Part shown: in pieces, positions 13,078-54,968 of the stretch
How the letters are laid out: every line of letters begins with the position of its first letter
Numbering within the stretch: the first letter of the stretch is position 1
DNA from: an uncultured Gammaproteobacteria bacterium
GTDB lineage: Bacteria; Pseudomonadota; Gammaproteobacteria; Arenicellales; JAANXG01
Assembly: GCA_947259175.1 (NCBI GenBank)
Contig: CAMYKW010000004.1
Location: 79,403 to 143,402 of the forward strand
Length of the DNA: 64,000 nucleotides
Reading direction: 5' to 3'
The notes under the pieces: model-generated
The model's input: the letters and a program-made list of their open reading frames with translations, nothing else
Told to the model about the DNA's origin: nothing
Databases searched by the model: none
Program-made: the position numbers and the translations under genes

Positions 13078-13092
13078 ACAACGCATCCAGCC

Positions 13093-15585
13093 ATGATCGA
13101 TCGAGCAAAGGCAGAAACCAGAGATGCGGCGATTGTCGCAGCCGAGACAGACGCCGCCACCGGCGGCGCCGACGCGGCGGGTCATGGCGTGACTCGAGAG
13201 ATCGCCGTCACCTGGTCCATCGGCGCCGTGCTTGCGGTAATGCTGTTGATCACCGTCATCGGTGGACTGTATGTCGCCACCAAGCTAAACGTCGCCTCTG
13301 AACGGGCAGGGGAGAATCACGAACTGATCGAGCAGAGCGACGCCAACATACGCAAACTGGATCAGGCGTTGTTGCCGGTGGTGCGGCGTCTGTATCACCT
13401 CGAGCAGGTGGTGCAGCGCCATGGCTTTGAATTCGAAATGCTGGTGCTCGACACCGACCGCGAGACCGGCGCCCTGGCCGCGGCCGCGAGCGGGGTCCAG
13501 GAGGCATTCGCGGCGCTGGGGGACACCGGCGGCGGCATCCTATCCCAGGAGTTGCTGGCGCAGATCGAGGAGCTGGTCGCGGTGATGTCGGCGATGACCG
13601 ATGAGTTGCTGGAGACCGAGGATCGCAACGAGCGCTTCGATCTGCTTTTAGATGCGCAGGACATGCAGCTGCAGTCGCGGACGACGATCAAAACTGCCTC
13701 GGCGCAGTTGGAAGAGGAGAGCAAACGTCTAACCGCCCTGGCGGCGGAGAACACCTCCAAAGCGCACCACCATCTGGAGGAACAGTACGGCACACTGCGG
13801 TCGGTCCAATATGGCGCCGGGTGGAGTTTGGGGGTGAATCTCATTGTGGTCATCGCGGCCATGTTGCTCCTGTACCGGCTGCTCGACCGGCGCCTGGGCC
13901 GGGTGGCCGATTACGCCAACCGGATTGCCGGCGGCGACTTCGACGCCCGCCTCGAGACAACCGCCACGGACAAGATCGCCCAGGTCGCGGCCGCCGTGGG
14001 TACGATGGGTAAGAGCCTCGCTGCATTGGTGCGCGACGGCGAACAGAAAAACGCCCTCGCCGAGGAAGCCAAGGCAAAGGCGGAGCGCGAGAACTGGATG
14101 AACGAGAGCCTGCGCCGGGTGTCCGAGGCGACACAGGGGGAAACCCGGATCGAGCGGCTGCTGGACCAGGCGCTGTCTATCCTGTGTGAGCGGCTGGCAC
14201 TGTCTGGCGCGTGGGTGAGTGAATTCAACCGCGGCGAGGCGCTATTGCTGGCGGCGTGCGGAGATATCGACGAAGCCACGCGAAGCGCCTTGGTTGTTGA
14301 AGGCGGCGCGATGAATAACGTCGCGCGCGACGGCGAGTCTCGATGGCTGGAGTTACCCCATGGGGATACCGCTCACACCTTATACGTCGCTGCGTTGAAC
14401 GAGTCTCGTAACGAACCCATGGTGCTGGCGCTGGTGTTCGCGGACTCGCCGGATGAGATCCAAAAACGCCTGGTAAAACACACCATGGTGAATCTCGGCG
14501 TCAGCGTACGCGCCGCCAACCAGGCGCAGACTTTGGAGCGCAACAACGCCGAGCTACGCCATAAGGTCGACGAAATGCTCGCAGTGGTCAATGCCGCGGC
14601 CAAGGGGGATCTCACCCGGGAGGTGAAAGTCTCGGGTGCGGATGCGATCGGCCAGATGAGCCAGGGATTGAATGGATTCTTCAAGGAACTACGCAGCCAC
14701 ATTGGCACCATCGCGGTGAACGCCCAAAGCTTGACGGCGGCGTCGGAGCAACTGTCCGGGGTGGGCACGCAGATCGGCACCAACGCGGAGCAGACTTCCG
14801 ATCGGGCCACGGCGGTGCTGGCGGTCGCCGAAGACGTGACCAAAGGCGTGGAAACCGTGGCGGCCGCCGCGGAACAGATGAACGCCAGCATCCGCGAGGT
14901 TGCCGACAACGCGAGTTCTGCGTCCGCGGTGGCGACCAACGGCGTCGAGATCGCCACCACCACCAACGCCACGGTGGCCAAACTGGGTGAAAGCAGCAAT
15001 GAGATCGGTAACGTCGTCAAGGTGATCACCACGATCGCCGAGCAGACCAATCTGCTGGCGTTGAACGCCACCATCGAAGCGGCGCGCGCCGGTGAGGCGG
15101 GTAAGGGGTTTGCGGTGGTGGCCAACGAAGTCAAGGATCTGGCCAAGGAAACCAGCCAGGCCACCGAGGATATCAGCAACAAGATCGAGGCCATCCAGGT
15201 GGACACCCGCAGCGCGGTGCAGGCGATCGGGGAGATCGGCGACATTATCGGCAAGATCCATGAGATCCAACAGCGTATCTCCTCCGGCGTTGAAAATCAG
15301 GCCCGCACCACGGATGAGATCACCCGGGTTGTGGCCGGTGCGGCGCAGGGGAGCACGGAGATTTCCCAGAGTGTCGCCAGCGTTAACCAGGCGGCGCAGG
15401 ATACCTTGAGCGGCGCCACCCAGGCGCAGCACGCGGCGCAGGAATTGTCGCGCACCGCCGCCGAGCTGCAGCGCATGGTGGGGCGGTTCACCTACGAACA
15501 GCCGCGGGAGGCCACGCCGTCCGGATTCGGTGATCGGGTGCGGGCCTTGTCTGAAGCCCCTGTGCCACAGCAAAAGGTCGGCTGA
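13093..15585 (+). CDS. Methyl-accepting chemotaxis protein (periplasmic helical sensor, HAMP, GAF-like insert, second HAMP, MCP signalling domain)
   Basis: Two TM segments flank about 190 aa. HAMP motif RIAGGDFDARLE. MCP core [35 protein letters not shown]. The gene starts 16 nt after the DOMON-like stop. Confidence 0.9.
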   Translation: MIDRAKAETRDAAIVAAETDAATGGADAAGHGVTREIAVTWSIGAVLAVMLLITVIGGLYVATKLNVASERAGENHELIEQSDANIRKLDQALLPVVRRLYHLEQVVQRHGFEFEMLVLDTDRETGALAAAASGVQEAFAALGDTGGGILSQELLAQIEELVAVMSAMTDELLETEDRNERFDLLLDAQDMQLQSRTTIKTASAQLEEESKRLTALAAENTSKAHHHLEEQYGTLRSVQYGAGWSLGVNLIVVIAAMLLLYRLLDRRLGRVADYANRIAGGDFDARLETTATDKIAQVAAAVGTMGKSLAALVRDGEQKNALAEEAKAKAERENWMNESLRRVSEATQGETRIERLLDQALSILCERLALSGAWVSEFNRGEALLLAACGDIDEATRSALVVEGGAMNNVARDGESRWLELPHGDTAHTLYVAALNESRNEPMVLALVFADSPDEIQKRLVKHTMVNLGVSVRAANQAQTLERNNAELRHKVDEMLAVVNAAAKGDLTREVKVSGADAIGQMSQGLNGFFKELRSHIGTIAVNAQSLTAASEQLSGVGTQIGTNAEQTSDRATAVLAVAEDVTKGVETVAAAAEQMNASIREVADNASSASAVATNGVEIATTTNATVAKLGESSNEIGNVVKVITTIAEQTNLLALNATIEAARAGEAGKGFAVVANEVKDLAKETSQATEDISNKIEAIQVDTRSAVQAIGEIGDIIGKIHEIQQRISSGVENQARTTDEITRVVAGAAQGSTEISQSVASVNQAAQDTLSGATQAQHAAQELSRTAAELQRMVGRFTYEQPREATPSGFGDRVRALSEAPVPQQKVG

Positions 15586-15652
15586 GCCCGCTCAGCTCCG
15601 GCGGGTCCGGGCCCGCCGCAACTCAAGCCCCACGGGCGCCATAGCTATGGAG

Positions 15653-15683
15653 AAAAACGAAAATCGCACTTTTCGTTTTTTTT
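15653..15683. terminator. Bidirectional hairpin terminator between convergent mcp and glycosyltransferase genes
   Basis: AAAAACGAAAA-tcgcac-TTTTCGTTTTT plus TTT is a perfect 11-bp AT-rich stem with T-runs on both strands. Confidence 0.45.
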
Positions 15684-15783
15684 GAAAATTCAGGGATGAA
15701 TTATTCAGAGCTTCCCTAAATTCGAGGCGTTGGTCTTTTTCGAGTGCGACGCCGGCTTAGCGGCTATCGGCGCAACCGGCGGG

Positions 15784-18700
15784 TCAGGATGACGCTACGG
15801 CGTCTGCGCGCACCGCGGGCGGTTCCTCGCGCAACGCAAACCGCTCGATCACCGCGTCCGATAAAAGCGCCGCGTACCAGCAGCCGAGCCGGTCTTCCAG
15901 CATGTGGTGTGTGTGCACCCAGGCGCGCAGCCGTTCGCCATCCTTGGCCAGTGCGTCGCGGTCATGGATGCGGTCGCGGATGGCGGCGAGCCACGCTTCC
16001 GTGTCGTTGGCCACGCGGGTGATCGGCTGCGCCGCGTAAGGTGGGATATCCGTGGCGATCACCGGCCAGCCCATGGCCCCGTATTCGAGCACACGCAGGT
16101 CGCTCTTGCACTCGTTGAAGGCGTTGATCTCCAGGGGTGCAACGGCAAGGTCCAAGTCCAGTTGTGCGAGTTGTGCCGGATAGTGGCGGTAAACCACCGG
16201 CTGATAATACTCAGCAACATATGGCCGCAGCGCACGCGGGCACATACCCATCATCACCCAGTCCACTTCTCCGGCCAACGCCTCCATCACCGGCGCCAGG
16301 ATGGTGAGATCGCCATCGTGTTGTTGCGCGCCCACCCAGCCGACGCGGGGTCTGGCGGCTCGTCGGCGGCGTATTTCCAGGTGTCCCCAACGCTGGCGCT
16401 CGAGGAGGTTGGGGACCACGCGCACGTCATCGATGAACCCGCGGTACGCTGCGGCCAGTGGCTCCGTGGGAACCACCAGCCGGTGGCAGTGGGCCAGGGC
16501 GTCGCGAAGCCGCTGTTCCAGGTCCGCCGGCATCAGGCCCCGCCGGTCGTTGTCATCGGGCATGGCGAGCAGGTGGTCGTCGAGTCCGAACACCAGCAAC
16601 GCCTCGCCCGACTTCCGGTAGCGGGGCAGCCAGTGCAGGAAGGGATCGGTGAAGCCGTGATGGATTAGCACGGTGTCGGGCGCGGCCCGTTTCAATTCGC
16701 ACAATGTCGGCACCCGCGTGGGTACGGCGCCCTCGTGGTCGGGCAAGAACGCGATTTCGGCGTGTGCTGCACGATCCAGGGCCTGTAACGGTTGGCGCAC
16801 GCGGTATTCGCCGCTGCCCTGCCGGTTCAGGGGAAACGCCCACACCCGGGGCCGGGGGTGCTCCGGCGGCGTCCACGGCACCGCGAGTTCGTCTTCCACA
16901 CGCATGTCGCCGCGGGCGAGGGAAAGGTTCCGATTGTAGGCCGGGTCGTTCGCCAACAGGTCAGGCCAGCGTGCTATCAGCGTCGTGTTATCCGCCGTGG
17001 TCTTGGAGTTCGGATCGGGAGGGGCAGGCGATTGCGGCTCGTGGCTTTCGTGCTTCAGCAAGGTCGCGAACGGTGTCCACACCACCTCGTATCCCGCCTG
17101 GCGGGCGCGCAGACACAAATCCACATCGTGGCCGCACTGCGTGAATCCGGTTTCGTCGAAACCGCCCAGCTGCGCGAAAAGTTCCCGGGAAAGCAGCATA
17201 CAGGCGCCACTGACCGCCGAGAAGTTTTGTGCGACCTGTAGACGGTTGAGGTAACCGGGTGACTGCATCGCGTGTCCGGTAAACGCTCGCCCGGCGCCGT
17301 CGTCTATGCCCAATATCAAACCCGCATGCTGTACCCGTCCGTGCAGGTCAATGAGGCGTGCGCCCACCACCCCGACTTCCGGGCGCTGTACGTTGGCCAC
17401 CATTCGCGTCAGCCATTCGTCATGGATAGCCTGTGCATCAGGTTCGAGCACCAGCAACAGTTCGCCCCGCGATTCGGCGGCGGCGACATGGGTCAACGAT
17501 GCCGATCCCACGGCGCCGGGTGTGCGCAGCACGCGCACTTTGTCGTCATACGTGCGCGCCAGCTCGTCCAGCAGATCCGAATCGCCGCCGCCGCAATCGC
17601 TCAGGACGACCTCAAAGTCGGGGTAGCGGGTTTTCTGCAGCAAGCCTTCGATGCATAGGGGCAGCCATTTATAACGTCTCTCCACTGGAATCAGAATAGA
17701 CACCGAAGGCGGGTCGTGCGCCTGGTAATCGACAAAAAACGTTCCCGCGATCTCATGATGGGTCACTTGGGCGGTGAGACCGTTGCGTTCGAGGTGCGTC
17801 TCGACCGCGATACGGTCGTTTTCGGCGTCCGCGGCACCGATGGGCTCGCGGTCTTTGTCGCGCGGATAGTGGACGAGCACTTCCGGTATGTGGCCGACAG
17901 CGGATTCTCCGGCCGTATCCAGGATGCGCAACACCGCGTCGAAAACACCGGCGCCCGCGCCAAATCCTCCGCAACGGGTGAGCACATCACGCTCCAGCGC
18001 CAGCACGTCACCCATGTATGGCGTCGAACGCAGCAGGTCCAGGTTGAAGTCGGGTTTGAATCGCGGTTGATCGCGAGTCCCGTCTCGCGCAATATGGTCG
18101 TCGTCACAGTAGATTATCCGCCATTGCGGATATCGGTTCATATAGTCGCCCCAGCGCAGCAGGGCGTGGGGCGCGAACTGCACGCCCGATTTGGCGCGGA
18201 TGATCCAGTCGGCCTGGGATTCGCTGACGATCCGATTCAAGGTGTCGACTAGATCCCCGCGGATCTCCACCCACTCCAGATTGGGCAGTCGATGAAAACC
18301 CGCGTCCGGCGCCGGACAGTCCGCTATCACCGACAGGCCCCACCCCGGATACAGCTGTCGACACAGACTGTCGAGGGTGTCGGCCAGCGCGTCGTGCTGA
18401 TTCCCCTGGTGGATGGCAATCAACTGAAAGCTGGGCCGTAGCCGCCATGCGAGCATCATGCGCTCCGCCATGTATTGCGCCTTGTTTTCGGTAAGCGCGT
18501 GCGGCTGTTGCCACCGCGCGTAGCGGTCTGCATCGCTGTGCGCTGATCCTTCGTCGCGCCGCGCGCCTTCGAGTTGTGTCAGCGCCTGCGTCCGTCTCAG
18601 TTCCACCTGCGCATTGCCCGGCAGCGGGTAGCGTGCGTAGATTTTACGGTGCAAGGCTGGAAAGTCGTGCCGCTCGCGCTGACTCATGTTGTCGTCCCTG

Positions 18701-21105
18701 GCCTCGGGCCGCAGGCGGACCTCGGCGGTGATACGCGGCACGTGCACCGGGGCGGTAATCCGCGCAAGGCGCAGTAATAGGTCCCAGTCCTCGAGGGCGT
18801 TGAGCGTCACATCGAAGTCTCCGGTGCAGGCGATCAATTCGCGCCGGTGGGCCCAGGTGTTAACCGGAATGAAATTGCCGACATGCAGTTGTTCCAGGGA
18901 GTATTGGATGTGCGAATACGGCGTGGTGCGCGACAAAACTTGACGTTTACCGCCTGCGAGGCGTTCGCGCACGTACTCCGCTTCGGTATAGACCAGGCCG
19001 GCTTGGTTGCCGCGCATGCCGTCGACGATCGTTTCGAAGTGGTCCGGGCACAACCGGTCATCGTCATCCAGATAACAGAGAATCGCCCCCGCAGACAGGG
19101 AGATGCCGGTATTGCGCGCGGCGGAAAGGCCGCGATTTTGAGCGTGTCGAACGTAGCGAATCCGGCCGTGGGGATCCTTGGCGGTAATCCAGTCGCCGAT
19201 GTCTTCGCCGCCGTCGTTGACGACGATGGCCTCCCAGTTATTGTAACTCTGGGCAAGCACAGAGGCCACCGCATCGCGCAGTAAATCGGGACGGTCGAGG
19301 GTGGGAATGATCACCGACACCAACGGCGTAGCATCGATCGGCGGCAACTCTGGTGCGGATCGGGCATTGTCCGTCTCGGCTAAATCCAAGAACCGGAGCA
19401 GCAAGGTGTTGTGAGGATGAGTGTCACGGGTGCGCGTTAGTTTGGCGTGCTGCGCCGGCGATACGTGTTTGAGGCGTTCCTCCGCGTCGCTGATCTCATG
19501 CGGGTCAAACACACCGGATTGGTGTGGCGCCAATTGCGCGCGCACGTAGTCAAGATTTTCGAGTGTGTCTGCGACCATGCTGTTATCGCGGTTGCGGTAC
19601 AGGAACAGCGGTTGCGATACATGGTGTGATTTGAAACCGCATGCAGCGGCCGCCAGCCAGAATTCCCAGTCCTCGCCTCCCAGGTACATGGCCGGTGAGT
19701 AACCCCCGGTTCGCTCCCACACCTCGCGGCGGTACAGGCTGCAATAGTCGTGGATGTTGTGCCGCTTCAGGGCTTCCAGGGATACGCGGCCCTTGACGTG
19801 GACATGATCCGCAAGGCCGAAATTCTGCTCGTCCACGTAGACGATGGCGATATCCGCATACCGATCGAGCACGGTGACGGTCTGTGTAAGATAGTCCGGG
19901 TGCAGTTTGTCATCGGCATCCAACGGCAGGATGTAGCGGCCCTGGGATGCGTTGATACCGGAATTGCGGGCGCTGGCAAGCCCGGCATTGGCTTGGGAGA
20001 TCAAACGAATTCTACCGTCGCCGCGGGTCGCCGCGAACCGACGCACGACCTGCACACAGTCGTCGGGGCTCCCGTCGTCTACCACTACGCACTCCCAATC
20101 CGTGAAGCGCTGGGCAACGACACTTTCCAGCGCTTCGGTGACGTATTGCGCCTGAAGGTAACAGGGGATGACGATGCTGACCGCCGGCTGGTGATGCACT
20201 GCAACGGCATTATGCGCACGCAAGCCCCGCGACAAGATGCCGCGAACGCGGCGAATGTCCCGGTCCAGCGTCCATGCCGCCGCTCCGCAGGACTCGATAC
20301 GCCGGTCCAGATGCGCCAGGATCTCCAACTCCAATCCGCGCAGTCTCTCCGCCGCCGCGGAGTACGCGGCGCGGGCTACCAGGCGCAGATGTGTCTCGAG
20401 CAGCCCGGAGTCCGCCAGGCACTGCTGCGGGTCACTTCCCGCGTCGAGACGTCGCCGGACGCCCGGCGTGCGTGAGTAGAAGAAGTTCGGATTTTCGATG
20501 GCCAGGCGCGTAACCAGTTCCCATGCTTCGGCGCCGCGGGCCGACGGTTGGAATTCTCCCAACCGTAGCAGATCGCTGCCGCGGTACACGGTGGCGGCGG
20601 GATCGATATGGTTCCCGTGGGTGAGCAGTAAGCCGAGATCGTTGCGGCCTCCGGCGTAGTCTTGCGCCGCCAGTCCCGGGTGAGGGGGAGGCTGCTTGGT
20701 GTCTTCCTGGGTGCCGGCATATTCCGGCGCGGCATAACCCAGGGAGCATTCGGGATGCGCCTCCAGGCCGGCGATGATTCGCGCCAGATGACCGGGCAGC
20801 AGGTGTTCATCCCCCCGCAGCCAAGTGTGATAACGCCCACACCCCGGTTCCAGGGCGTGTGTCTGGAAATGTTGTGGCGTGGGATTTTTCGGCACACGGA
20901 CGCAGTTGATGCGTCCATCGGCGAGGTATGGTGCGACGGCCTCACGCAGACCATCGCTGCGGCCGTCATCCAGGATTATGATCTCCAACGGCGACACGTC
21001 CTGCAGCTGCACGCTTTCAACGCAGCGACCGAAGCTCGACGCATCCTCGTGCGGCCGGATAAAAACCGTGACGAGCACCTCGTTGTTCAATTCCCGAGTA
21101 TTCAC
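15784..21105 (-). CDS. Giant multidomain glycosyltransferase (several GT-A/GT2-like modules plus C-terminal GT-B-like module)
   Basis: 1773 aa. GT2-like starts are VTVFIRP..IIILDDG, VSIVIPCY..VVVDDGSPDD..DADD, VSVIIPTLDR..AQSYNNWEAIVVNDGG..DDDD and VSILIPV..VVLSDCGGGD. The C-terminal 370 aa carry VGWVGAQQHDGD..LDLAVAPLE..NECKSDLRVLEYGAMGWPVIATD. GTG start. Confidence 0.8.
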   Translation of the reverse strand: MNTRELNNEVLVTVFIRPHEDASSFGRCVESVQLQDVSPLEIIILDDGRSDGLREAVAPYLADGRINCVRVPKNPTPQHFQTHALEPGCGRYHTWLRGDEHLLPGHLARIIAGLEAHPECSLGYAAPEYAGTQEDTKQPPPHPGLAAQDYAGGRNDLGLLLTHGNHIDPAATVYRGSDLLRLGEFQPSARGAEAWELVTRLAIENPNFFYSRTPGVRRRLDAGSDPQQCLADSGLLETHLRLVARAAYSAAAERLRGLELEILAHLDRRIESCGAAAWTLDRDIRRVRGILSRGLRAHNAVAVHHQPAVSIVIPCYLQAQYVTEALESVVAQRFTDWECVVVDDGSPDDCVQVVRRFAATRGDGRIRLISQANAGLASARNSGINASQGRYILPLDADDKLHPDYLTQTVTVLDRYADIAIVYVDEQNFGLADHVHVKGRVSLEALKRHNIHDYCSLYRREVWERTGGYSPAMYLGGEDWEFWLAAAACGFKSHHVSQPLFLYRNRDNSMVADTLENLDYVRAQLAPHQSGVFDPHEISDAEERLKHVSPAQHAKLTRTRDTHPHNTLLLRFLDLAETDNARSAPELPPIDATPLVSVIIPTLDRPDLLRDAVASVLAQSYNNWEAIVVNDGGEDIGDWITAKDPHGRIRYVRHAQNRGLSAARNTGISLSAGAILCYLDDDDRLCPDHFETIVDGMRGNQAGLVYTEAEYVRERLAGGKRQVLSRTTPYSHIQYSLEQLHVGNFIPVNTWAHRRELIACTGDFDVTLNALEDWDLLLRLARITAPVHVPRITAEVRLRPEARDDNMSQRERHDFPALHRKIYARYPLPGNAQVELRRTQALTQLEGARRDEGSAHSDADRYARWQQPHALTENKAQYMAERMMLAWRLRPSFQLIAIHQGNQHDALADTLDSLCRQLYPGWGLSVIADCPAPDAGFHRLPNLEWVEIRGDLVDTLNRIVSESQADWIIRAKSGVQFAPHALLRWGDYMNRYPQWRIIYCDDDHIARDGTRDQPRFKPDFNLDLLRSTPYMGDVLALERDVLTRCGGFGAGAGVFDAVLRILDTAGESAVGHIPEVLVHYPRDKDREPIGAADAENDRIAVETHLERNGLTAQVTHHEIAGTFFVDYQAHDPPSVSILIPVERRYKWLPLCIEGLLQKTRYPDFEVVLSDCGGGDSDLLDELARTYDDKVRVLRTPGAVGSASLTHVAAAESRGELLLVLEPDAQAIHDEWLTRMVANVQRPEVGVVGARLIDLHGRVQHAGLILGIDDGAGRAFTGHAMQSPGYLNRLQVAQNFSAVSGACMLLSRELFAQLGGFDETGFTQCGHDVDLCLRARQAGYEVVWTPFATLLKHESHEPQSPAPPDPNSKTTADNTTLIARWPDLLANDPAYNRNLSLARGDMRVEDELAVPWTPPEHPRPRVWAFPLNRQGSGEYRVRQPLQALDRAAHAEIAFLPDHEGAVPTRVPTLCELKRAAPDTVLIHHGFTDPFLHWLPRYRKSGEALLVFGLDDHLLAMPDDNDRRGLMPADLEQRLRDALAHCHRLVVPTEPLAAAYRGFIDDVRVVPNLLERQRWGHLEIRRRRAARPRVGWVGAQQHDGDLTILAPVMEALAGEVDWVMMGMCPRALRPYVAEYYQPVVYRHYPAQLAQLDLDLAVAPLEINAFNECKSDLRVLEYGAMGWPVIATDIPPYAAQPITRVANDTEAWLAAIRDRIHDRDALAKDGERLRAWVHTHHMLEDRLGCWYAALLSDAVIERFALREEPPAVRADAVASS

Positions 21106-21340
21106 CTAATCAATGTTGTGAGGTCGTGTACGCCGTGGGTGTAACTCGATGCCCCGGTTGTGTGCCTGCAAATCGCGGCAACAAAATCTATTTACCCCCC
21201 AGGTTGAACACGTGCGGAGCGCACGCGCCGAGACTCCGCCGACACCGTTGTATTTTGGCGCGTCGAACGACGGATCGCCTGGATCGCGGGCGTTGCCATT
21301 TGTATTCCGGTTTCCGTTCTTTGGTGACTACAAGGGGTTT

Positions 21341-21356
21341 TGCAATTTCCATACCA
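21341..21356 (-). promoter_or_regulatory. Candidate sigma-54 promoter upstream of the giant glycosyltransferase
   Basis: The minus strand reads TGGTAT-GGAAA-TTGCA with GG-N10-GC spacing kept, about 235 nt upstream of the GTG at 21105. Confidence 0.3.
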
Positions 21357-21507
21357 TCGGTGGAAAGCGGGCCTGGATCGGCGAGGCGTCGGGCTTTTGA
21401 CGCTCTGCACCGGCAAGCCTTTGCCCGGCGCGGCAAGTTTTCGGCGTGCGCGGGCTAGATGAGCGCCATGATCACCGTTTCGTAGCGGCGACCGTCAAAC
21501 GCGGTGG

Positions 21508-22077
21508 CTACAGCAGATCGATCAACAGGGGTTTGCAGGTCTCTTTCACCGTCGAGATGGCCAGGATACCGGCCAGAATCACCAGTATCGTCAATAAATC
21601 CCATTCATTCAGGACATATCCCAGCGCCAACGCCGCCGCCGGCGGGTGCTCGGTTTGGGTGATGACCATCGCCAGGATCGCGCTGCCCGTGGCCAGCGCG
21701 CCGCAGACGATGAGCAGCGGCGCCGGACTCGACCAAATTCCCGCGAGCGCGACCACGGAAGCAACCGTCGCCCAGGCGCAACCCACGGCCGTGCCGACGA
21801 TATAACCGCCAATGAGAAAACGTCGCTTCGATGCGTTGACATGCGGCATGGTAAAGGCGATGAATGCGCTCGCGCCCAACGACGCAATCAGCACCGTCTG
21901 GTGCATCGCATCCAGTAATAACAAAACGATCAATATCGTTACGGTTGCGATTCCGCACTGTGCGATATAACGCGTGGGATGCCGGCGGAACTTGGGATCC
22001 ACGAGACGGCCCCAACGCGGCCGGCGCGCGTGCATGGACGTGCTGGATTTCGATGAGAGTTGACTGCCGGATGTCAT
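21508..22077 (-). CDS. HPP family membrane protein
   Basis: Four or five hydrophobic segments and the HPP signature ITQTEHPPAAALALG. Confidence 0.7.
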   Translation of the reverse strand: MTSGSQLSSKSSTSMHARRPRWGRLVDPKFRRHPTRYIAQCGIATVTILIVLLLLDAMHQTVLIASLGASAFIAFTMPHVNASKRRFLIGGYIVGTAVGCAWATVASVVALAGIWSSPAPLLIVCGALATGSAILAMVITQTEHPPAAALALGYVLNEWDLLTILVILAGILAISTVKETCKPLLIDLL

Positions 22078-22191
22078 TGTCTGATTTCGTTTCGCATGGT
22101 GCGAGGTGCCGAATGACGTCCAGTATTCCGCGCAGTCACTGCGCCAACACGGTAAATGTCGACCGATTTAGAAGATAGCTGAGAGCTCGAA

Positions 22192-22485
22192 TTACTCACG
22201 GGCGTCAAATGGGTGTTCGATCGATTGCAGTCGATAAATGAATGCCAACACCTCCGCGACCGCCTGGTAGAGCTGCACCGGGATATCGGCATCGAGATCG
22301 ACCTGCGCGAGCAGACCGACCAATTCGGGATCTTCGTACAGCGGCACGCCTGCTTGTCTTGCAATGCCGATAATCTGTTCGGCGATCAGCCCGCGTCCTT
22401 TCGCCACTACCCGCGGCGCGTGATCGTCGCGTTCATACTTGAGCGCAACGGCATTGCGGTAATCACCGTGTCGTTTAGACTTCAC
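22192..22485 (-). CDS. Free-standing FlhB C-terminal-domain-like protein (EscU/YscU/FlhB family fragment)
   Basis: 97 aa reading AVALKYERDDHAPRVVAKGRGLIAEQIIGIARQAGVPLYEDPELVGLL..VAEVLAFIY. GTG start overlaps the upstream stop (GTGA). Confidence 0.75.
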   Translation of the reverse strand: MKSKRHGDYRNAVALKYERDDHAPRVVAKGRGLIAEQIIGIARQAGVPLYEDPELVGLLAQVDLDADIPVQLYQAVAEVLAFIYRLQSIEHPFDARE

Positions 22486-23648
22486 GCCTGGACGTCCAGC
22501 AGTGGTTGTTGAATACCCGGAAAATCCGCCTCATGGATGCCCGACGCACAGACCACGGATTCCGGAACCAGGCCGATGTTGCGCAGTCGGTCGCATAGAC
22601 CGTCGAGGTGGGATTGGGCGAGTGCTACCGTCGCATCGCGTTCCGCGCGTAACACAACGGAAATCAAGTCGCCGGAGAGGGTTAAGCGCGCCTGCATTGC
22701 GCCGATGGACGGCAGCTCGATTGAGACGACGGTGGAAAATACGCCCCCCCCTTGTCCACCCCGCGACGACGGTCGTTTCTCGATTCTGAATCTCACCATT
22801 TGCACCTCGTCTCCGTCTCGTACCGGCAGCTCCAGATTCCACGCGGATCTCGAACCCTCGACTTCGATCAGCGATGTGAGTTGGTGCAGCTGAATTCGCG
22901 CGAGCGCGCTTTCCACCTGTTGGGACAAAGCGTTTAATGTCTTGACGACCGCGGCGTCGCCAGGCGACGCTGTATTTGTATTGCCATGCGCCTGCTGATT
23001 TGTCGTGGCGGGTGCACTGCGGCTGCGAACCGGGCGCGAACCGCCCGGATTCACCATATCAGCCAGTGCGGTACGCAGCCGCACCAGTCCCGCCTTGAAA
23101 TCCCGTTCCAACGCGCCACGATGGGAGTCCGACAGCAGCCTGAGCAGGCGCTGTTCCAGAAAATGACCGCTGTTCAATATCGCCTGTTTTACAGATTCCC
23201 CGGACAAGGATCCGCTGATCTGGGTCAGACTATCGACGACGTGGCGAGCCAATTGCGTGATCGAGCCGGGTAGTCGCGTACCACCGGACTGGCGCGCGAT
23301 ACGATGTAAATTTGTCAACAACTCGATAATCGATCCCTGTTTCGGCAGTTGTTGCCGAATCGCCTGCACCAGGTTGGACGGATGCAGTTGCTGGTCGAGA
23401 ATCCTGAGCCGAATCTCCGGTCCGATCTTCTCCACCACCAGCGCCAGGGATTGACCGGCGATCAGTGGCAGCGTAGTGCGAGCAGTGAACGTAGCCTGGT
23501 TCAGTTGCAGCGTCACCGTTCCCTGCTGGGCGACGGTGAGGACGGTGCCGGAAAGCTGCTGGCCGACCGCGAGCCCACTGAGCTGCGCGTGATTCGACGC
23601 CACCGTGAGCAACTGCTGGGTGACCAGTGAGGTTGATATGGATTCCAT
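22482..23648 (-). CDS. FliK-like protein (flagellar hook-length control C-terminal-like domain)
   Basis: 388 aa. The C-terminal block WNLELPVRDGDEVQMVRFRIE..VVSIELPSIGAMQARLTLSGDLISVVLRAERDATVALAQSHLDGLCDRLRNIGL follows the Flg_hook-type pattern. It is translationally coupled to the FlhB-like gene. Confidence 0.6.
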   Translation of the reverse strand: MESISTSLVTQQLLTVASNHAQLSGLAVGQQLSGTVLTVAQQGTVTLQLNQATFTARTTLPLIAGQSLALVVEKIGPEIRLRILDQQLHPSNLVQAIRQQLPKQGSIIELLTNLHRIARQSGGTRLPGSITQLARHVVDSLTQISGSLSGESVKQAILNSGHFLEQRLLRLLSDSHRGALERDFKAGLVRLRTALADMVNPGGSRPVRSRSAPATTNQQAHGNTNTASPGDAAVVKTLNALSQQVESALARIQLHQLTSLIEVEGSRSAWNLELPVRDGDEVQMVRFRIEKRPSSRGGQGGGVFSTVVSIELPSIGAMQARLTLSGDLISVVLRAERDATVALAQSHLDGLCDRLRNIGLVPESVVCASGIHEADFPGIQQPLLDVQA

Positions 23649-23781: not shown

Positions 23782-24129
23782 TCAAGCGATGAGCAGTTCA
23801 TCCGACGTCTTCTGTCGCAGCAGCGTCAGGGCAAAACCAATCCGCTTCGAACACATGCGCAACCCAAAGTCACCCGGCGTGAAACTGTGATACGACGCGT
23901 CCTCTTCGAGACGAGGTTCAAGGTTTCGCACGTAGTGACGAACCCAGTGTGGCGCCTGCCGATAAAAAAGGTACGCGACAAAAAAATGCTCGATCTCCCG
24001 GTCGTTCACGCTTCTGTTGAACCAAGCCACGTGTGCAGCCTTGAAGATGTCGAATTCGCTGGCTCCTCGATCGTTTGCGGCGCTCGCCACCAGATCCGTG
24101 TCAGTTTGACAGCGTTGTTTCCGGTTCAT
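23782..24129 (-). CDS. Hypothetical protein (no recognisable domain)
   Basis: The ATG at 24129 has a GGAGG SD 5-6 nt upstream and gives 115 aa. It is on the same strand and upstream of the FliK-like/FlhB-like pair. Confidence 0.5.
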   Translation of the reverse strand: MNRKQRCQTDTDLVASAANDRGASEFDIFKAAHVAWFNRSVNDREIEHFFVAYLFYRQAPHWVRHYVRNLEPRLEEDASYHSFTPGDFGLRMCSKRIGFALTLLRQKTSDELLIA

Positions 24130-44055: not shown

Positions 44056-47000
44056 ATGAACAACAACGCCGGTGAGCAGCGCGACGTCGCGCAGTTGAAT
44101 CGAGAAGGCGAAAACCTGTTCCAGGACGGCGATATCGCCGGCGCAATGGCCAAATTCGAGCTGGCGCTGACGGTGGATGATGCACATCCGGAGACTTTGA
44201 ATAACCTCGGCGTCGGCCATCTGCACCTCGGCGATACCGAGCGCGCGCTGCAGTGTCTGGCGCGGGGGTTGGAATCGCACCCGCAAAATCGCGAGCTGCT
44301 GACCAATGCTTGCACCGTACTCCGCGAGCTGGGGTATGACCGGGATGCGGAGATACTCGAGCTTGGTGTCGAGGCCCTCAGCCGTGGAGATACGGACACA
44401 TGTTGGGCGCCCGGCGAACAGGCACGGGACTTCGTGGCCGGTTTGGCGCCCCTGGGCGCACGGCCGTTGGTGTCGGTGGTCGTCATTGCCGACAGCGGTT
44501 TGGCGGCCATGCAAAGCGCCTTGGGTACACTGGCCGCGCAGAGCTATGACAACTGGGAGGCGGTGATTATTTCCAGTCACCGTGAGGCAGCCGCGCTGCG
44601 GGACCGTCGTCACGCCCCGGACGCGCGAATTCGTTACCATGAGACGCGTGCCGACAACCCCGCCGGCGCCCGCAACGACGCCTTGCGCGCGGCGCAGGGG
44701 GAGGTGATCTGTTATCTCAACGATACCGAATTGTTCCTGCCCCACCATCTGTCCACGGTCGTCGCTGCGTTGCGGGAGCGTGCAGTCCCGTTTGTTTACA
44801 CCGATGCGCAGGTGGTGCACGGTGTGGCCGCAGACGGAGCGTGCGAAGCGCTGTTCACCGATCAGGTGTCGAGCGACGCGGAGTTTTGTCGGGACCGGAT
44901 TCTGGTCGACAACCCGATATCCATCGCGACCTGGGCGCACCGAGCCGGATTTGTCGAAAGCCTGGGCGGTTTCGATGAGTCGCTGCGGGCGTGCGAGGAT
45001 TGGGATCTACTGCTGCGATTCAGCGGCCACCGCCCACCGGTGCACGTCCCCCGCGTGAGCGTGCAGATCCGGCGTCAAGGCGGCGCGGTGGACCTGGCGC
45101 GGACCGCCCTCCCAGGGCATCTCGCGGACGGCGTCGTCGATATCCTGTACCGACGCTATCCGGTGACCGCGCCGGCGTTACAGCGGGCGAGGAATGCCCG
45201 GTTACGGCAGTTGGCGCACGAGCGGCGGCGCCAAAGCGCGGACTCGCCGTACGTGCGCATGGACGAATTGTACCCGTTATGGGTCGAGAAACATCAGCTG
45301 TCCGAGGCGGACGGAGAGATTCTCGCTGAACGGATGATGACCGACTGGAGTCACCAGCCGACCATTGAGATTTTGATGGTTGCCGAACCGGGCGATGAGT
45401 CCCGCATGTGCGACACCGCGGTTAGCCTGCGTCGTCAGTTATATGGCCAGTGGCGTTTGACGGTGATTTGCCCCGAACCGATGACCCCATGCCCTGGGCT
45501 GCCTCAAGCCCGGTTCCGCGCGATCGTCCATCGCGGCGATCCAACGGCGGCGTTGAACAGCGTGGCCAAGGGCACCGCGCGGGACTGGATCGCGCTCATC
45601 GACCCCGGCGACCTCCTGCCGCCCCACGCGCTGTTTGCCTGCGCCGACTACATCAGACTCCATCCAAACTGGCGGTTGCTGTACACCGACGAGGACTGTA
45701 TCGACCCGGCGGGCAATCGTTTTGATCCTAAATTCAGACCGGATATCAATATGGACTTGTTGCGGTCCACCGCCTACACCGGACCTTTCTGCTTGGTGCG
45801 TGCCGATGCGTGGCGGGCGTTGGCGGGCGTCACCACGGTCGATGACAGTAAGACTTACGACTTGACGCTAAAGGTCGTGGATCGGTTTGGGGAGGACGGC
45901 GTCGGGCACATCGCCGATGTGCTGTATCACCGCCGGCGCGGTAAACGCACAAACGACGACGGCGAGATCCGCCGCGGCGAGCTGCGCGCGCTCAAAAATC
46001 ATTTCGAGCGCAATGGGATTGGCGCCGACGTCGAACCCGGCTATCTGCAGGGCACCCATTTCATCACCTACCGGCACGATCAATCCCAGCCGCTGGTGTC
46101 CATCATCGTCCCGACGCGCGACAAATTGGAGTACCTGCGTCCCTGTGTCACCAGCGTCTTGGATAAGACCCGTTATGAGTCGTACGAGCTGATCATCGTC
46201 GACAACGGCAGCGACGATCCGCAAACCCTCGAATTTCTTGATGAACTGGAGGGCGCGCATCGACACGTTCGCGTGCTTCGCTATCCACATCCGTTCAATT
46301 ACGCCGAGATCACCAATTGGGCGGCGGTTCAGGCCCGGGGTGATTACCTGTTGCTGCTGAACAACGATACCCATGTAGTGCACGACAACTGGCTCGGGCG
46401 GATGGTGAACCAGGGAATGCGTAGCGAGGTGGGTGTGGTCGGCGCGCGCCTGGTATTCGCGGATATGCGCTTACAGCATGCCGGGGTGGTGACCGGCATA
46501 CATGATATTGCCGACCATGTGTTTCTCAAACTGCCCATGGATGAACCCGGTCACTTGGGCCGGGCGCAGTGCGTACAGAATTACTCGGCGGTAACCGCGG
46601 CTTGCATGCTGGTGCGCAAATCGGTATTCCTTGAGGTCGGGGGGATGGACCAAGCCGAACTTGCGGTGCTGTACAACGATGTGGACCTGTGCCTGAAGAT
46701 CGGCGCGCGGGGGTTGAAAGTGGTGTGGACGCCCTACGCGACTCTGATACACCACGGTTCGCGCAGTATCCGCGAATACAACGACAAATCGGATCTTCTG
46801 CAGCGTAAATCGGAGGCCCACTGCATGGTGCGCAGGTGGTTGCCGCGGCTTGCCCGGGATCCTGCGTACAACCGCAACCTGACGCTGAAGCACTGCGATG
46901 CGCGTGTGGAAACCCAGGTCGACGTGAGCTGGGACCCGAGTTTCCACGACCGGCCGCGGGTGATGGCGTTTCCGTTTCATCGCTGGGGTTCGGGTGAATA

Positions 47001-47976
47001 CCGGGTACGCGCGCCGGTGCGCGCGCTGCACGATGCCGGTCGCATTCAATATGCGTTGATGCCCTTGAACAACACGCGACGGGCGCCCCATCTGTGCGAG
47101 CTGGAGCGGGTGGCGCCGGATGTCCTGCTGATGCACAACACCCTGCATGACGAGTACCTGAAACTTCTGCCGCTGTACAAGCAATACAATTCCGCTTACC
47201 GCGTGTTGGGTCAGGATGATCTGATAAGTGCATTGCCCCCGAAAAATCCTTATCGGAAAACGGTGTATCCGGACATAGAGCAACGCATCCAACGCGCCTT
47301 GGAATGCTGCGATCGTCTGCTGGTTAGCACGGAACCGTTGGCGCAGGCGTTCGCAGGGATGATTGAAGACATTGTGGTGTTGCCGAATTACCTCGAGCGT
47401 GCGCGATGGGGCCGGTTGCGCTCCGCGAGGCGTCGCGGCGCGCGGCCGCGCATCGGTTGGGCGGGTGCGCAGCAGCATCAAGGTGATCTGGAGTTGCTGA
47501 TCGAAGTCGTGCGGGCCACCCGCGACGAAGCGGATTGGGTGTTCATGGGCATGTGCCCGGAACAGATCCGGCCGTGGTGTGCGGAGTATCATGACGGTGT
47601 GACTATCGACCGCTATCCACAGGTGCTTGCGTCTCTGGATCTCGATCTCGCCGTGGCGCCGCTCGAGGTCAACGCGTTCAACGAGGCGAAAAGCAACCTG
47701 CGGCTGCTGGAGTACGGCATCCTGGGATGGCCGGTGGTGTGCACCGACATCTTTCCCTATCGCGACGCACCGGTGTGCCGCGTCGCCAACACCCCCGGCG
47801 CGTGGATCGACGCGCTGCGCGAGCGCATCCACGATCTCGAGGCCGCGGCGCGGGAGGGCGATGCGCTCAGGCGCTGGGTTCGCGAGCGCTGGATGCTGGA
47901 CGATCACCTCGATGAATGGATGGCGGCGCTGCTGCCGGGGCAGGGCATGGCCTGTGCTCGGGATGTGCGCGGCTAA
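44056..47976 (+). CDS. TPR-containing multidomain glycosyltransferase, likely flagellin glycosyltransferase; paralog of 15784-21105
   Basis: 1306 aa. TPR-like N-terminus (AMAKFELALTVDDAHPETLNNLGVGH). GT2-like modules are AAQSYDNWEAVII and VSIIVPTRDK..LIIVDNGSDD..LLLNNDT. The C-terminal module reads IGWAGAQQHQGD..LDLAVAPLE..NEAKSNLRLLEYGILGWPVVCTD. It is located between flgL and fliC. Confidence 0.8.
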   Translation: MNNNAGEQRDVAQLNREGENLFQDGDIAGAMAKFELALTVDDAHPETLNNLGVGHLHLGDTERALQCLARGLESHPQNRELLTNACTVLRELGYDRDAEILELGVEALSRGDTDTCWAPGEQARDFVAGLAPLGARPLVSVVVIADSGLAAMQSALGTLAAQSYDNWEAVIISSHREAAALRDRRHAPDARIRYHETRADNPAGARNDALRAAQGEVICYLNDTELFLPHHLSTVVAALRERAVPFVYTDAQVVHGVAADGACEALFTDQVSSDAEFCRDRILVDNPISIATWAHRAGFVESLGGFDESLRACEDWDLLLRFSGHRPPVHVPRVSVQIRRQGGAVDLARTALPGHLADGVVDILYRRYPVTAPALQRARNARLRQLAHERRRQSADSPYVRMDELYPLWVEKHQLSEADGEILAERMMTDWSHQPTIEILMVAEPGDESRMCDTAVSLRRQLYGQWRLTVICPEPMTPCPGLPQARFRAIVHRGDPTAALNSVAKGTARDWIALIDPGDLLPPHALFACADYIRLHPNWRLLYTDEDCIDPAGNRFDPKFRPDINMDLLRSTAYTGPFCLVRADAWRALAGVTTVDDSKTYDLTLKVVDRFGEDGVGHIADVLYHRRRGKRTNDDGEIRRGELRALKNHFERNGIGADVEPGYLQGTHFITYRHDQSQPLVSIIVPTRDKLEYLRPCVTSVLDKTRYESYELIIVDNGSDDPQTLEFLDELEGAHRHVRVLRYPHPFNYAEITNWAAVQARGDYLLLLNNDTHVVHDNWLGRMVNQGMRSEVGVVGARLVFADMRLQHAGVVTGIHDIADHVFLKLPMDEPGHLGRAQCVQNYSAVTAACMLVRKSVFLEVGGMDQAELAVLYNDVDLCLKIGARGLKVVWTPYATLIHHGSRSIREYNDKSDLLQRKSEAHCMVRRWLPRLARDPAYNRNLTLKHCDARVETQVDVSWDPSFHDRPRVMAFPFHRWGSGEYRVRAPVRALHDAGRIQYALMPLNNTRRAPHLCELERVAPDVLLMHNTLHDEYLKLLPLYKQYNSAYRVLGQDDLISALPPKNPYRKTVYPDIEQRIQRALECCDRLLVSTEPLAQAFAGMIEDIVVLPNYLERARWGRLRSARRRGARPRIGWAGAQQHQGDLELLIEVVRATRDEADWVFMGMCPEQIRPWCAEYHDGVTIDRYPQVLASLDLDLAVAPLEVNAFNEAKSNLRLLEYGILGWPVVCTDIFPYRDAPVCRVANTPGAWIDALRERIHDLEAAAREGDALRRWVRERWMLDDHLDEWMAALLPGQGMACARDVRG

Positions 47977-48273: not shown

Positions 48274-49122
48274 ATGGCTTTAGTGATCAACTCAAACCTA
48301 GCATCGCTGAATGCCCAGCGGAATCTGGTCAACACGCAGATGGATTTGAGCCGTTCCCTGCAACGACTCTCTTCTGGGCTTCGTATCAACAGCGCGCGCG
48401 ACGATGCCGCCGGACTGTACGCCGTGGAAAAGATGTCAGCAGACATCCGCGGCATCAATCAGGCGGTGCGCAACGCCGCAGACGGCATCTCGCTGGCCCA
48501 GACCGCGGAAGGCGCGTTGGCGCAGATCGCCAACAACCTGCAGCGGATTCGGGAGATCGCCGTGCAGGCGGCGAACGACACGGTGGAGGACCGCACCGGT
48601 CTGCAAAAAGAGGTGGATCAGTTGACGCAGGAAATCTCGCGCATCGTCAAGACCACCGAGTTCAACAAAAAGGAGTTGCTAACCAACACCACCGCGTTGA
48701 AATTCCAGGTGGGTCAGGACGGCGATGCGGACAATCAGATCAGCGTCAAAGGCGTGGAATTGGATGTCGCGGGCTCTGGCGGCTTGCACGCCTATAACGG
48801 CACCCTGAGCGCGACCGGTGTGGTTGACGTGGATGATGCGGCCGGGGCGTCGGCGGCGCTGGCGAACATCGAGGACGACATCGAGAAGGTTGCCGAATCC
48901 CGCGCGACTTTCGGTGCGGTGCAGAACCGTTTCGACGCGGTGATTGCCAACTTGCAGAACTATTCCGAGAATCTCAATGCTGCGCGCAGCCGTGTCCAAG
49001 ACGCGGATTTCGCACAGGAAACAGCCAACCTCACGCGGGCGCAGATCCTGCAACAGGCCGGTGTGGCGATGCTTGCGCAAGCAAATTTCCAGCCGCAGTC
49101 GGTGTTGGCGTTGCTGCAGTAG
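48274..49122 (+). CDS. fliC: Flagellin (short, 282 aa)
   Basis: MALVINSNLASLNAQRNL at the N-terminus and LTRAQILQQAGVAMLAQANFQPQSVLALLQ at the C-terminus. GGGAGA SD. The ORF-track TTG start at 48259 is rejected. Confidence 0.95.
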   Translation: MALVINSNLASLNAQRNLVNTQMDLSRSLQRLSSGLRINSARDDAAGLYAVEKMSADIRGINQAVRNAADGISLAQTAEGALAQIANNLQRIREIAVQAANDTVEDRTGLQKEVDQLTQEISRIVKTTEFNKKELLTNTTALKFQVGQDGDADNQISVKGVELDVAGSGGLHAYNGTLSATGVVDVDDAAGASAALANIEDDIEKVAESRATFGAVQNRFDAVIANLQNYSENLNAARSRVQDADFAQETANLTRAQILQQAGVAMLAQANFQPQSVLALLQ

Positions 49123-53681: not shown

Positions 53682-54968
53682 ATGACTGAGCGCGGTATTG
53701 TCATTGTTGAAGGTGACAGCGAACAACGAAAACAGATTGAATGCCTGCTTGCGGCGATCAGTGAACGGATCGTGGCCACCGACTTTGACCATTTACGCCG
53801 TATTACGGATCAGGATCAGGGCAAATCCCCGCTGTGGGCGGAGGTTCAGGGGTTGATTAGGGCCTCCAGGCAGCAGGCCGGGCCATCGAAAACGGACTGC
53901 TCCGCCAAGGATCAGCGATCCCCGGAATTGTTTCGCTGTCTGGTGGGTTCCAGCCCCGGTCTGATGCGGGTCAAGAAGGCGATCATGCAAGTGGCGGACT
54001 CCGACACCAACGTGATGTTGCTCGGCGAATCAGGTACCGGTAAGGAGGTGGTCGCACGCAACATTCATTATCACTCCCGGCGCCGGGGAAAGCCGTTCGT
54101 CCCTATCAATTGCGGGGCAATTCCCGCTGAGTTGCTGGAAAGCGAATTGTTCGGCCACGAAAAAGGTGCGTTCACCGGCGCGATCTCCAGCCGCCGCGGA
54201 CGGTTCGAAATGGCGCAGGGCGGCACTTTATTCCTGGACGAGATCGGGGACATGCCCACCGCGATGCAGGTTAAACTGCTGCGCGTTCTGCAGGAACGCA
54301 ACTTCGAACGCGTGGGAAGTGAAAAAACCGTTCAGTCGAACGTTCGCATCATCGCCGCCACGCATCGCGATTTGGAGAGCCAAATCGAAGCGGGAAACTT
54401 TCGCGAGGATCTTTACTACCGGTTATGCGTGTTTCCTATCAACATTCCACCGCTGCGGGAACGTATCGAGGATTTGTCCGCATTGATCGAGTGCGTGCTC
54501 GATCGTTTGAAGAACGAAAGACAGGCGAAGATCAGCTTGACCAAGGGCGCAACGACTATCCTGCGCCGCTATGCCTGGCCCGGCAACGTACGCGAATTGG
54601 CCAATCTCATCGAGCGTTTGTTGATCATGTATCCCAACCAACGCGTAGATATTGCGGACCTGCCCGAACGCTACCGGCGAAACGTCGAAATCGAGGAGAT
54701 GGAATTCGATCCCCCGGCGGACGCCGGAGGTCAGCAGACGTCGACTGCCACACTGCCCGCCGGCGGAATCGATCTCAAACAGCACCTCTCCGACGTCGAG
54801 CGATCACTGATTGAACAGGCGTTGCTTCAAGCCGACGGCGTGGTGGCGCGGGCCGCGGAAATTCTTAAAACGCGGCGCACGACTCTGGTGGAAAAGATCC
54901 GCAAATACAAACTCGAAACGACCCCGCCGCGACGGGAATTTGACGGCTGCGAGGCCGTTAATTCCTAA
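53682..54968 (+). CDS. fleQ: sigma-54-dependent flagellar master regulator FleQ/FlrA-type (short N-terminal domain)
   Basis: The AAA+ core is close to my recollection of Pseudomonas FleQ ([66 protein letters not shown]). C-terminal [23 protein letters not shown]. An in-frame stop at 53664 excludes a longer N-terminus. Confidence 0.88.

Follow-up and report, generated by a model that had tools for sequence, protein, structure and literature searches.

A single open reading frame (ORF) in a 64-kb stretch of DNA from an uncultured Gammaproteobacteria bacterium (contig CAMYKW010000004.1, positions 79,403 to 143,402; hereafter referred to as the window) encodes a 1773-amino acid (aa) protein composed of five GT-A-type modules and one GT-B module. 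This protein, hereafter referred to as the target, is probably a soluble glycosyltransferase that belongs to the FgtA (PA1091) family and acts in the cytoplasm. Its most likely role is to take part in assembling an O-linked glycan on FliC, a short flagellin, before this is exported. The flagellar assignment is based on the homology to FgtA, on a 42%-identical gene in the flgL-fliC island of the window, on family members that lie beside fliC and on a conserved sigma-54-type promoter element. It is further supported by the lack of a membrane segment in the protein and of polysaccharide export genes among the ORFs scanned, and by related metagenome-assembled genomes (MAGs), which keep the FliK-like/FlhB-like/flgN neighbourhood as well as a paralog with tetratricopeptide repeats (TPR). 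What the analysis itself shows is the set of folds and motifs, the homology that links the target to FgtA and the paralog, the contexts of the genes and the conservation of the promoter element. An earlier note on this DNA, made from the letters alone, had proposed a possible glycan builder for flagellin or another flagellar or surface component; the flagellar connection in that proposal is borne out by the four lines of evidence named first, and its substrate is one that we infer.

Flagellin glycans shape motility, filament stability, and host and phage recognition. To our knowledge, the large flagellin glycosyltransferases of the Pseudomonas type have hardly been dissected at the domain level. 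The present case exposes a modular, combinatorial design of FgtA-like enzymes, in which a fixed three-module unit forms the C-terminal part and catalytic motifs have been lost in different modules of different paralogs.

Module architecture of the target

The 5.3-kb ORF is intact and runs uninterrupted from a GTG start on the minus strand (15784..21105), so that the description of a single long polypeptide in the earlier note stands. Since the N-terminal length matches those of the three closest homologs, the start should be correct to about 10 codons. We cut the protein into six pieces for a Pfam scan, and compared its modules by profile-profile comparison with hhalign, using module alignments built from the target, the window paralog and eleven homologs. 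PF00535 (GT2; gathering threshold, 23.3 bits) was found above the gathering score in four modules: 36.4 bits in module 1, as a partial match (aa 22–121), 114.6 bits in module 2 (aa 310–463), 93.6 bits in module 3 (aa 597–751) and 55.1 bits in module 5 (aa 1136–1313). These segments agree with the four GT2-type starts noticed before, and every motif quoted in the earlier note is present. Modules 2 and 3 are canonical; the motifs of the former are kept in the homologs, and the LDDDD of the latter recurs in 79 of the 101 family modules of its type. Module 1 is divergent. It is related to module 2 with an hhalign probability of 99.3%, its second motif reads GDE in the target and GDD in close relatives, and it is followed by a helical linker reaching aa 300.

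The Pfam scan gave no match in aa 901–1135. A degenerate fifth GT-A-like module had been suspected in the protein, and both homology and fold now confirm it as module 4 (aa 886–1095). This module was aligned with modules 2, 3 and 5 at hhalign probabilities of 96.6%, 96.6% and 93.3%, respectively (E 6e-10 to 3e-7, about 197 columns). Its AlphaFold2 model (predicted local distance difference test (pLDDT), 87.7; predicted template modelling score (pTM), 0.87) matched, in a Foldseek search of the PDB, K4 chondroitin polymerase, heparosan synthase 2, SpsA, WrtF, TarS and TarP (E 1e-14 to 1e-10). Where module 3 has VNDGG and LDDDD, the alignment places IADCP and RAKSG in module 4, and in no family member does this module carry acidic motifs at the DDG/DXD positions, the usual form being x-E/P-P/A-G. 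As the canonical nucleotide- and metal-binding motifs are thus missing family-wide, five GT-A folds do not equal five canonical active sites. Module 4 has near-invariant features of its own in 162 sequences, namely a Y-x-D-x-D motif about 30 residues past the canonical DXD position (with the aspartates conserved at 100% and 90%), FKPDFNLDLLRS and a GH motif. Judged from this conservation, module 4 is a constrained, non-canonical GT-A module and not a drifting one, and it may serve either in catalysis or in acceptor binding.

Module 5 departs from the family norm of VDN and LNNDT, the latter being present in 98 of the 162 sequences. The earlier note had drawn attention to LEPDA at the place where the paralog has LNNDT; the alignment bears this out, and LEPDA occurs in the target only, among the 162 family sequences. 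The closest relatives have DPE, DPG, DIA or SPG at this position, which suggests that the motif is eroding in the target's clade. QHAG and DVDLCLR are retained in module 5 of the target.

The C-terminal part was likewise correctly recognised as GT-B-like. The AlphaFold2 model of the C-terminal 373 residues has the two-Rossmann fold (pLDDT 91.9, pTM 0.90), and Foldseek matched it in the PDB to the GT4 enzymes PglA, PimB', SenB, GlgM, MshA and BshA (E 1e-12 to 1e-9). It is the best conserved part, with the motifs RVGWxG..HxGD and FNxxKSxLRxLEYG conserved at 98–100% in 160 representatives, and its distant sequence relatives carry PF00534. We term the domain GT4-like and do not assign it to GT4, because the Pfam match to Glyco_trans_1_4 at the C-terminus is sub-threshold (20.1 bits versus a cut-off of 27) and no E-x7-E motif is found, the glutamates of FNE-CKSDLRVL-EYG lying eight residues apart, not seven. 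When PDB sequences were searched with a profile made from the GT-B alignment, nothing significant was returned. Modules 2 and 3 and the GT-B domain keep all the family motifs, and they are 65–76% identical to relatives.

Taken together, the domain annotation upholds glycosyltransferase folds for five GT-A modules and one GT-B module. No membrane segment was predicted (the highest 19-residue Kyte-Doolittle mean was 1.24), and the same scan found none of the transmembrane helices or translocation channel of the processive GT2 synthases of the cellulose/chitin/hyaluronan type; the protein is most likely cytoplasmic and soluble. A processive mode of action, as suggested before, finds no support: membrane segments are lacking, and the modules are arranged as would suit separate active sites that each add a sugar in steps. 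There was no Pfam match to a TPR domain in the 1773-aa protein, which does not have the combination of TPR with a single GT-B domain that is typical of FlmG. Since the best NCBIfam matches (TuaG, EpsD, WcaA and PgaC) are all sub-threshold and to generic polysaccharide glycosyltransferases, they allow no sugar specificity to be deduced.

Relationship to FgtA and other flagellin glycosyltransferases

The sequence of FgtA/PA1091, the b-type flagellin glycosyltransferase of Pseudomonas aeruginosa PAO1, was machine-read from the supplement PDF of PMC11833859 (1685 aa as transcribed, in which single-residue errors are possible). A pa1091 mutant of PAO1 is reported to have non-glycosylated flagellin (PMC11833859). 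BLASTP aligned residues 904–1750 of the target with residues 861–1685 of FgtA (38.9% identity, 861 columns, E 1e-118), and the hidden Markov models (HMMs) of modules 4, 5 and GT-B (m4, m5 and GT-B) matched FgtA at residues 839–1080, 1081–1359 and 1362–1685, with E-values of 9e-36, 2e-71 and 7e-108, respectively. By these matches, the target is a member of the FgtA family in sequence, with a different N-terminal half. The two proteins share a C-terminal unit of non-canonical GT-A, GT2 and GT-B, and each has its gene in a flagellar region; the linkage to flagellar genes or their regulon that characterises FgtA is found for the target in its FliK-like and FlhB-C-like neighbours and its conserved sigma-54 element. 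They differ in that FgtA has about 840 N-terminal residues, including a CD0244-like phosphotransferase according to the paper, where the target has three GT2 modules, and in that FgtA is encoded in a flgL-fliC island that also holds PA1088-PA1090, whereas about 27 kb separate the target gene from fliC. The target is an architectural variant of a known, FgtA-like kind of enzyme.

According to the paper on PA1091, a CD0244-like phosphotransferase is fused to the GT2 glycosyltransferase in this protein (PMC11833859). We considered such a TagF/CD0244-like phosphotransferase as the identity of the C-terminal domain of the target and rejected it: in fold the domain resembles GT4 enzymes, and in sequence its counterpart is the C-terminus of FgtA, not the N-terminal part.

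The catalytic motifs are distributed differently in the two proteins. In the PDF-transcribed sequence, m5 of FgtA (aa 1081–1359) is without VDN, NND and QH, which most family members conserve, and reads VASGP, LGLAG and REAG, whereas the target keeps acidic residues at those positions. The GT-B motifs of FgtA are intact (RVGWAG..HGGD and NECKSNLRLLEYG), the same as in the target. The loss of the m5 motifs next to intact GT-B motifs raises the possibility that GT-B, and not GT2, primes flagellin, and hence the question for PAO1 of whether the GT-B rather than the GT2 module places the first sugar on flagellin.

The window itself encodes a second family member, the 1306-aa paralog between flgL and fliC, which BLASTP aligned with residues 587–1748 of the target, i.e. 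modules 3, 4, 5 and GT-B (42% identity, 1175 columns). The paralog has an N-terminal TPR and is without modules 1 and 2, whereas the target has both of these modules and no TPR. Their motifs show a reverse pattern: module 3 of the paralog is degenerate, lacking the DDG and DXD motifs (IISSHR and LNDTE), and its module 5 is canonical (LNNDT). Orthologs of the paralog share contigs with orthologs of the target in all three related MAGs.

Comparable systems are found elsewhere. Fgt1, Fgt2 and VioT of P. syringae and OrfN of P. aeruginosa PAK, compared here by size and gene order, are large cytoplasmic flagellin glycosyltransferases, as we propose for the target. The gene for VioT (1173 aa), which adds the terminal sugar, does not lie at fliC but in an island that it shares with the aminotransferase gene vioA and the methyltransferase gene vioM (PMC3927599). 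This island mirrors the operon of DegT aminotransferase, methyltransferase and glycosyltransferase genes in which the target's orthologs lie (see below), and VioT is close in size to the 1160-aa stretch from module 3 to GT-B; the target is 600 aa longer, however, and the 64-kb window contains no vioA-like or vioM-like gene. FlmG of Caulobacter crescentus is built from a flagellin-binding TPR domain and a GT-B domain responsible for sugar transfer (PMC7591256). FlmG and the window paralog both combine TPR with GT-B. FlmG, which has 596 aa and one catalytic domain, is a pseudaminic acid transferase, whereas the target has five GT-A modules and no TPR; the likeness is one of design, and we claim no homology. 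K4 chondroitin polymerase and Pasteurella heparosan synthase 2, the best structural matches of module 4, also carry several GT-A active sites per chain, but they have two domains and polymerise free polysaccharide, unlike the target with its six modules, GT-B domain and linkage to flagellar genes.

Relatives of the target and their gene contexts

We searched 185,579 species-representative genomes for relatives. Full-length relatives, with 59–65% identity, were found in three of them only, all MAGs of uncultured Gammaproteobacteria. Gene order was examined in two of the three, where the ortholog occupies the same position as the target, after flgN, GGDEF-EAL, HDOD, FliK-like and FlhB-like genes; in the third, the gene lies on a short contig. 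In those MAGs, the ortholog is the last gene of an apparent operon that comprises an unknown gene (401–462 aa), a methyltransferase gene, a DegT aminotransferase gene and the glycosyltransferase gene. Remnants of the DegT, methyltransferase and unknown genes were sought upstream of the target ORF and none was found; a weak tblastn match (E 4e-4) proved to be conserved promoter DNA read as protein. In L001, one of the related loci, the gene directly downstream of the ortholog encodes a 775-aa protein with a faint Flagellin_IN match (15905–18232).

More distant relatives (40–50% identity) adjoin or neighbour flagellin genes in several unrelated contigs. With X as the family member, the orders are flgL-X-fliC (L005), fliE-X-fliC-flaG-fliD (L039), DegT-X-fliC (L040), flgK-flgL-sulfotransferase-GT-X (L041; GT, glycosyltransferase) and X followed by three genes, a TPR protein gene and then fliC-fliD (L003). 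No flagellar gene was within reach of the family members in L038 and L042. L041 also contains tandem giant glycosyltransferase genes after flgL (3072–13688), one for a protein of 1579 aa and one for a protein of 1895 aa that has a radical-SAM domain.

A conserved sigma-54-type element upstream of the target

The sigma-54-like element reported in the earlier note is indeed present, at 21356..21341 on the minus strand. It reads TGGTATGGAAATTGCA, lies 236 nt upstream of the GTG and is spaced GG-N10-GC, as sigma-54 promoters are. Chance alone would give 0.17 matches to TGGYAY-N5-TTGCW in the window, which has three, and the other two copies precede flgB and the FliK-like gene upstream of flgA. The element is contained in a 110-bp non-coding block that is 71–73% identical to the DNA upstream of the operon in three related genomes (L001, L002 and L008), where the element reads TGGTACGGAACTTGCA at the homologous place. 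In L002, the first operon gene begins about 40 nt downstream of the element. A search close to the target gave neither a convincing intrinsic terminator nor a convincing sigma-70 promoter. The window also codes for sigma-54 activators of the FleQ and FleR types and for a FleS-like kinase (Table 1). Co-regulation of the target with flagellar genes is well supported as a prediction.

Module content across the family

We scanned 1.84 billion cluster representatives with HMMER, using residues 587–1773 as the query. The best 150 matches all had E <= 1e-204 and spanned modules 3 to GT-B or 4 to GT-B in proteins of 830–3292 aa. An impression from word-indexed searches, that the family is very rare (about 13–25 proteins), was rejected on the basis of this exhaustive scan as an artefact of candidate pre-selection. 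Together with the earlier homologs, the best 150 matches gave 160 representatives, which we annotated with the module HMMs. The C-terminal unit m4-m5-GT-B was invariant in this census, and was sometimes duplicated, with 0 to 4 further GT-A modules in front. Two, three, four, five and six GT-A modules per protein were found in 39, 47, 57, 15 and 2 proteins, respectively. Since the family ranges from two to six, the five of the target place it roughly in the top tenth (17 of the 160 have five or more): the module count, called unusually high before, is high, but it lies on a continuum and is not exceptional. The exact order m1-m2-m3-m4-m5-GT-B was found in five proteins of the census, all close relatives of the target, so that rarity appears to be confined to this six-module order in a few uncultured Gammaproteobacteria.

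Across the family, the three-module unit is preceded by varying numbers of GT2 modules, or by methyltransferase, radical-SAM, TPR or phosphotransferase domains. The GT-B domain of the family also occurs as a stand-alone protein of about 330–340 aa, for example in Acidithiobacillus. It is present twice in some giant proteins, in the order GT-B, m4, m5, GT-B.

From the census and the motif losses in FgtA, which is classed as GT2, it is conceivable, if rather unlikely, that the m4-m5-GT-B unit is a machine directed at flagellin, that its near-invariant GT-B domain is what truly O-glycosylates the protein, and that the N-terminal GT2 modules (0 to 4 in number) are swappable elongation units. The giant proteins would then work as assembly lines on one chain, with a module content that encodes the flagellar glycan, and the target would stand among the longest of these lines. 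If the structure of the glycan does follow from module content, genome sequences could be used to read flagellar glycans and to re-engineer them.

Proposed role and alternative explanations

In the role that we favour, the synthesis of the flagellin glycan would be shared between the two family members of the window. By analogy with FlmG (PMC7591256), the TPR-bearing paralog would dock on flagellin and start the glycan. Lacking a TPR, the target would then extend it by adding several sugars in turn at separate active sites (modules 2, 3 and GT-B, and possibly 1 and 5), and it would be transcribed from the sigma-54 promoter together with other flagellar genes. We infer from the observations above which acceptor and sugars are used, in what order the enzymes act and which modules are active.

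Several points weigh against this role. The target is encoded about 27 kb from fliC, outside the flgL-fliC island, and the paralog occupies that island. The DegT, methyltransferase and unknown genes of the relatives' operon have no homolog anywhere in the 64-kb window, and without the first two the target could be partly redundant here. Module 1 is divergent and the LEPDA of module 5 is unique, so that some modules may be inactive. The division into priming by the paralog and elongation by the target would be drawn, by analogy, solely from the presence or absence of a TPR domain. Some sources name relatives of the target 'O-antigen biosynthesis protein'.

Three other explanations can be set against a role in flagellin glycosylation, and each has less support. 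The position of the target beside FliK-like and FlhB-C-like genes, and not beside fliC, could mean that it modifies another acceptor, such as the cap, the hook-associated proteins, a FliK-like protein or a separate large surface protein like the 775-aa Flagellin_IN-like product encoded directly downstream of the ortholog in L001; the canonical island position is, after all, already held by the paralog. We consider this unlikely, as the window encodes no homolog of the 775-aa protein, the more distant family members lie directly beside fliC, and FgtA acts on flagellin (PMC11833859). Slightly less probable still is that the target builds a cell-surface polysaccharide of the O-antigen, capsule or exopolysaccharide type and lies among motility genes incidentally. 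Its GT2 and GT4 content is generic, the sub-threshold NCBIfam matches (TuaG, EpsD, WcaA and PgaC) and the O-antigen label of some relatives point this way, and the best structural matches of module 4 are the two-domain polymerases. Such a pathway is, however, hard to reconcile with a protein without a membrane segment, with a window whose scanned ORFs include no polysaccharide export gene and no domain of the Wzx/Wzy, ABC-transporter or initiating-transferase kind, with the recurrent linkage of the family to fliC and its homology to FgtA, and with a sigma-54 element common to flagellar operons.

No better a chance is given to the idea that the target is a decaying or largely redundant copy, in which the upstream sugar-modification genes have been lost, the donor has gone and the enzyme is drifting. 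The missing DegT, methyltransferase and unknown genes, of which the promoter block alone is left, would fit such a history, as would the unique LEPDA in a clade where the motif is eroded, and the module 1 motifs that differ from those of the relatives. Against it stand the uninterrupted 5.3-kb ORF, the complete family motifs of modules 2, 3 and GT-B together with their identity to relatives given above, and the retained promoter element.

The surrounding locus

The coordinates of the target, its modules and other features of the window are listed in Table 1.

Table 1. Positions of the target, its modules and selected neighbouring features in the 64-kb window
Feature	Coordinates	Strand	Basis
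MCP gene, convergent with the target	13093-15585	+	Pfam scan
Whole ORF: six-module glycosyltransferase, predicted soluble	15784..21105	-	ORF listing, translation, hydropathy
GT-B domain, aa 1416-1750, GT4-like	15856..16860	-	AlphaFold2, Foldseek, motif conservation
Module 5, aa 1131-1360, GT2, variant SDCGG and LEPDA	17026..17715	-	PF00535, motif census
Module 4, aa 886-1095, non-canonical GT-A fold	17821..18450	-	hhalign, AlphaFold2, Foldseek
Module 3, aa 591-810, canonical GT2, VNDGG and LDDDD	18676..19335	-	PF00535
Module 2, aa 301-530, canonical GT2, VVDDGSPDD and LDADD	19516..20205	-	PF00535
Module 1, aa 1-210, divergent GT2, LDDG and GDE	20476..21105	-	PF00535, hhalign
Conserved 110-bp non-coding block containing the sigma-54 element	21340..21449	-	blastn and alignment
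Sigma-54-type -24/-12 element, TGGTATGGAAATTGCA	21341..21356	-	Pattern match, cross-genome alignment
Paralog, 1306 aa, N-terminal TPR then modules 3-4-5 and GT-B, between flgL and fliC	44056..47976	+	BLASTP, Pfam TPR and GT2
fliC, short flagellin, 282 aa, presumed acceptor	48274..49122	+	Pfam Flagellin_N, Flagellin_C
FleQ-like sigma-54 activator	53682..54968	+	Pfam Sigma54_activat, HTH_8
FleS-like kinase, following the FleQ-like gene	55029-56345		HisKA/HATPase_c
FleR-like sigma-54 response regulator, following the FleS-like gene	within 56104-57720		Response_reg and Sigma54_activat

The earlier note had placed the gene inside the flagellar locus. It does lie in a chemotaxis and flagellar supercluster, but beside a gene for a methyl-accepting chemotaxis protein (MCP) and at the distance from fliC stated above. 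The MCP gene flanks it on one side, and HPP, FlhB-C-like and FliK-like genes on the other. Read from low to high coordinates, the order up to the target is CheB, MCP-hemerythrin, CheA, HDOD and response-regulator genes, an EB_dh-like gene, the MCP gene and the target itself. On the high-coordinate side, the target is followed by a 400-bp gap and then by genes for an HPP membrane protein, a 97-aa FlhB-C-like protein and a FliK-like protein, all on the minus strand. Beyond the FliK-like gene come HDOD, GGDEF-EAL, flgA, a second FliK-like gene, motAB, PilZ and flgB through flgL. The 1306-aa TPR-GT2 gene, fliC, fliD, a WD40 gene, the FleQ-/FleS-/FleR-like regulators and fliF lie after flgL. An Rfam scan of 15500–22600 gave no match.

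Some other features of the window were noted. The two FliK-like (Flg_hook) genes are separate, and both read from the minus strand (22192–23648 and 29501–30421). Translational coupling links the first to the gene for the 97-aa FlhB C-terminal-domain protein, and the same pair occurs near fliC in L039; the second, upstream of flgA, lies behind the sigma-54-like site at 30469–30484. Beside the first FliK-like gene is a 126-aa ORF without a Pfam domain (23782–24162, minus strand), 53% identical to a co-positioned 115-aa ORF in L002. Three HDOD proteins, one of them with a cNMP-binding domain, and a PAS-GGDEF-EAL protein (8612–9457, 10679–11890, 24304–25170 and 25174–27549) are encoded by genes interspersed among those for flagella and chemotaxis. 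Between the fliD region and the FleQ-like regulator lies an odd insert in the flagellar cluster, a gene for a WD40 beta-propeller protein of 500 aa (51806–53308, minus strand). The chemoreceptor encoded at 3388–5739 on the minus strand has a C-terminal hemerythrin domain and is possibly an oxygen- or iron-sensing MCP. The EB_dh (ethylbenzene-dehydrogenase-like, haem-binding) protein is encoded directly upstream of the 830-aa HAMP-MCP (12234–15585, plus strand), and this pair is kept beside the glycosyltransferase gene in L002.

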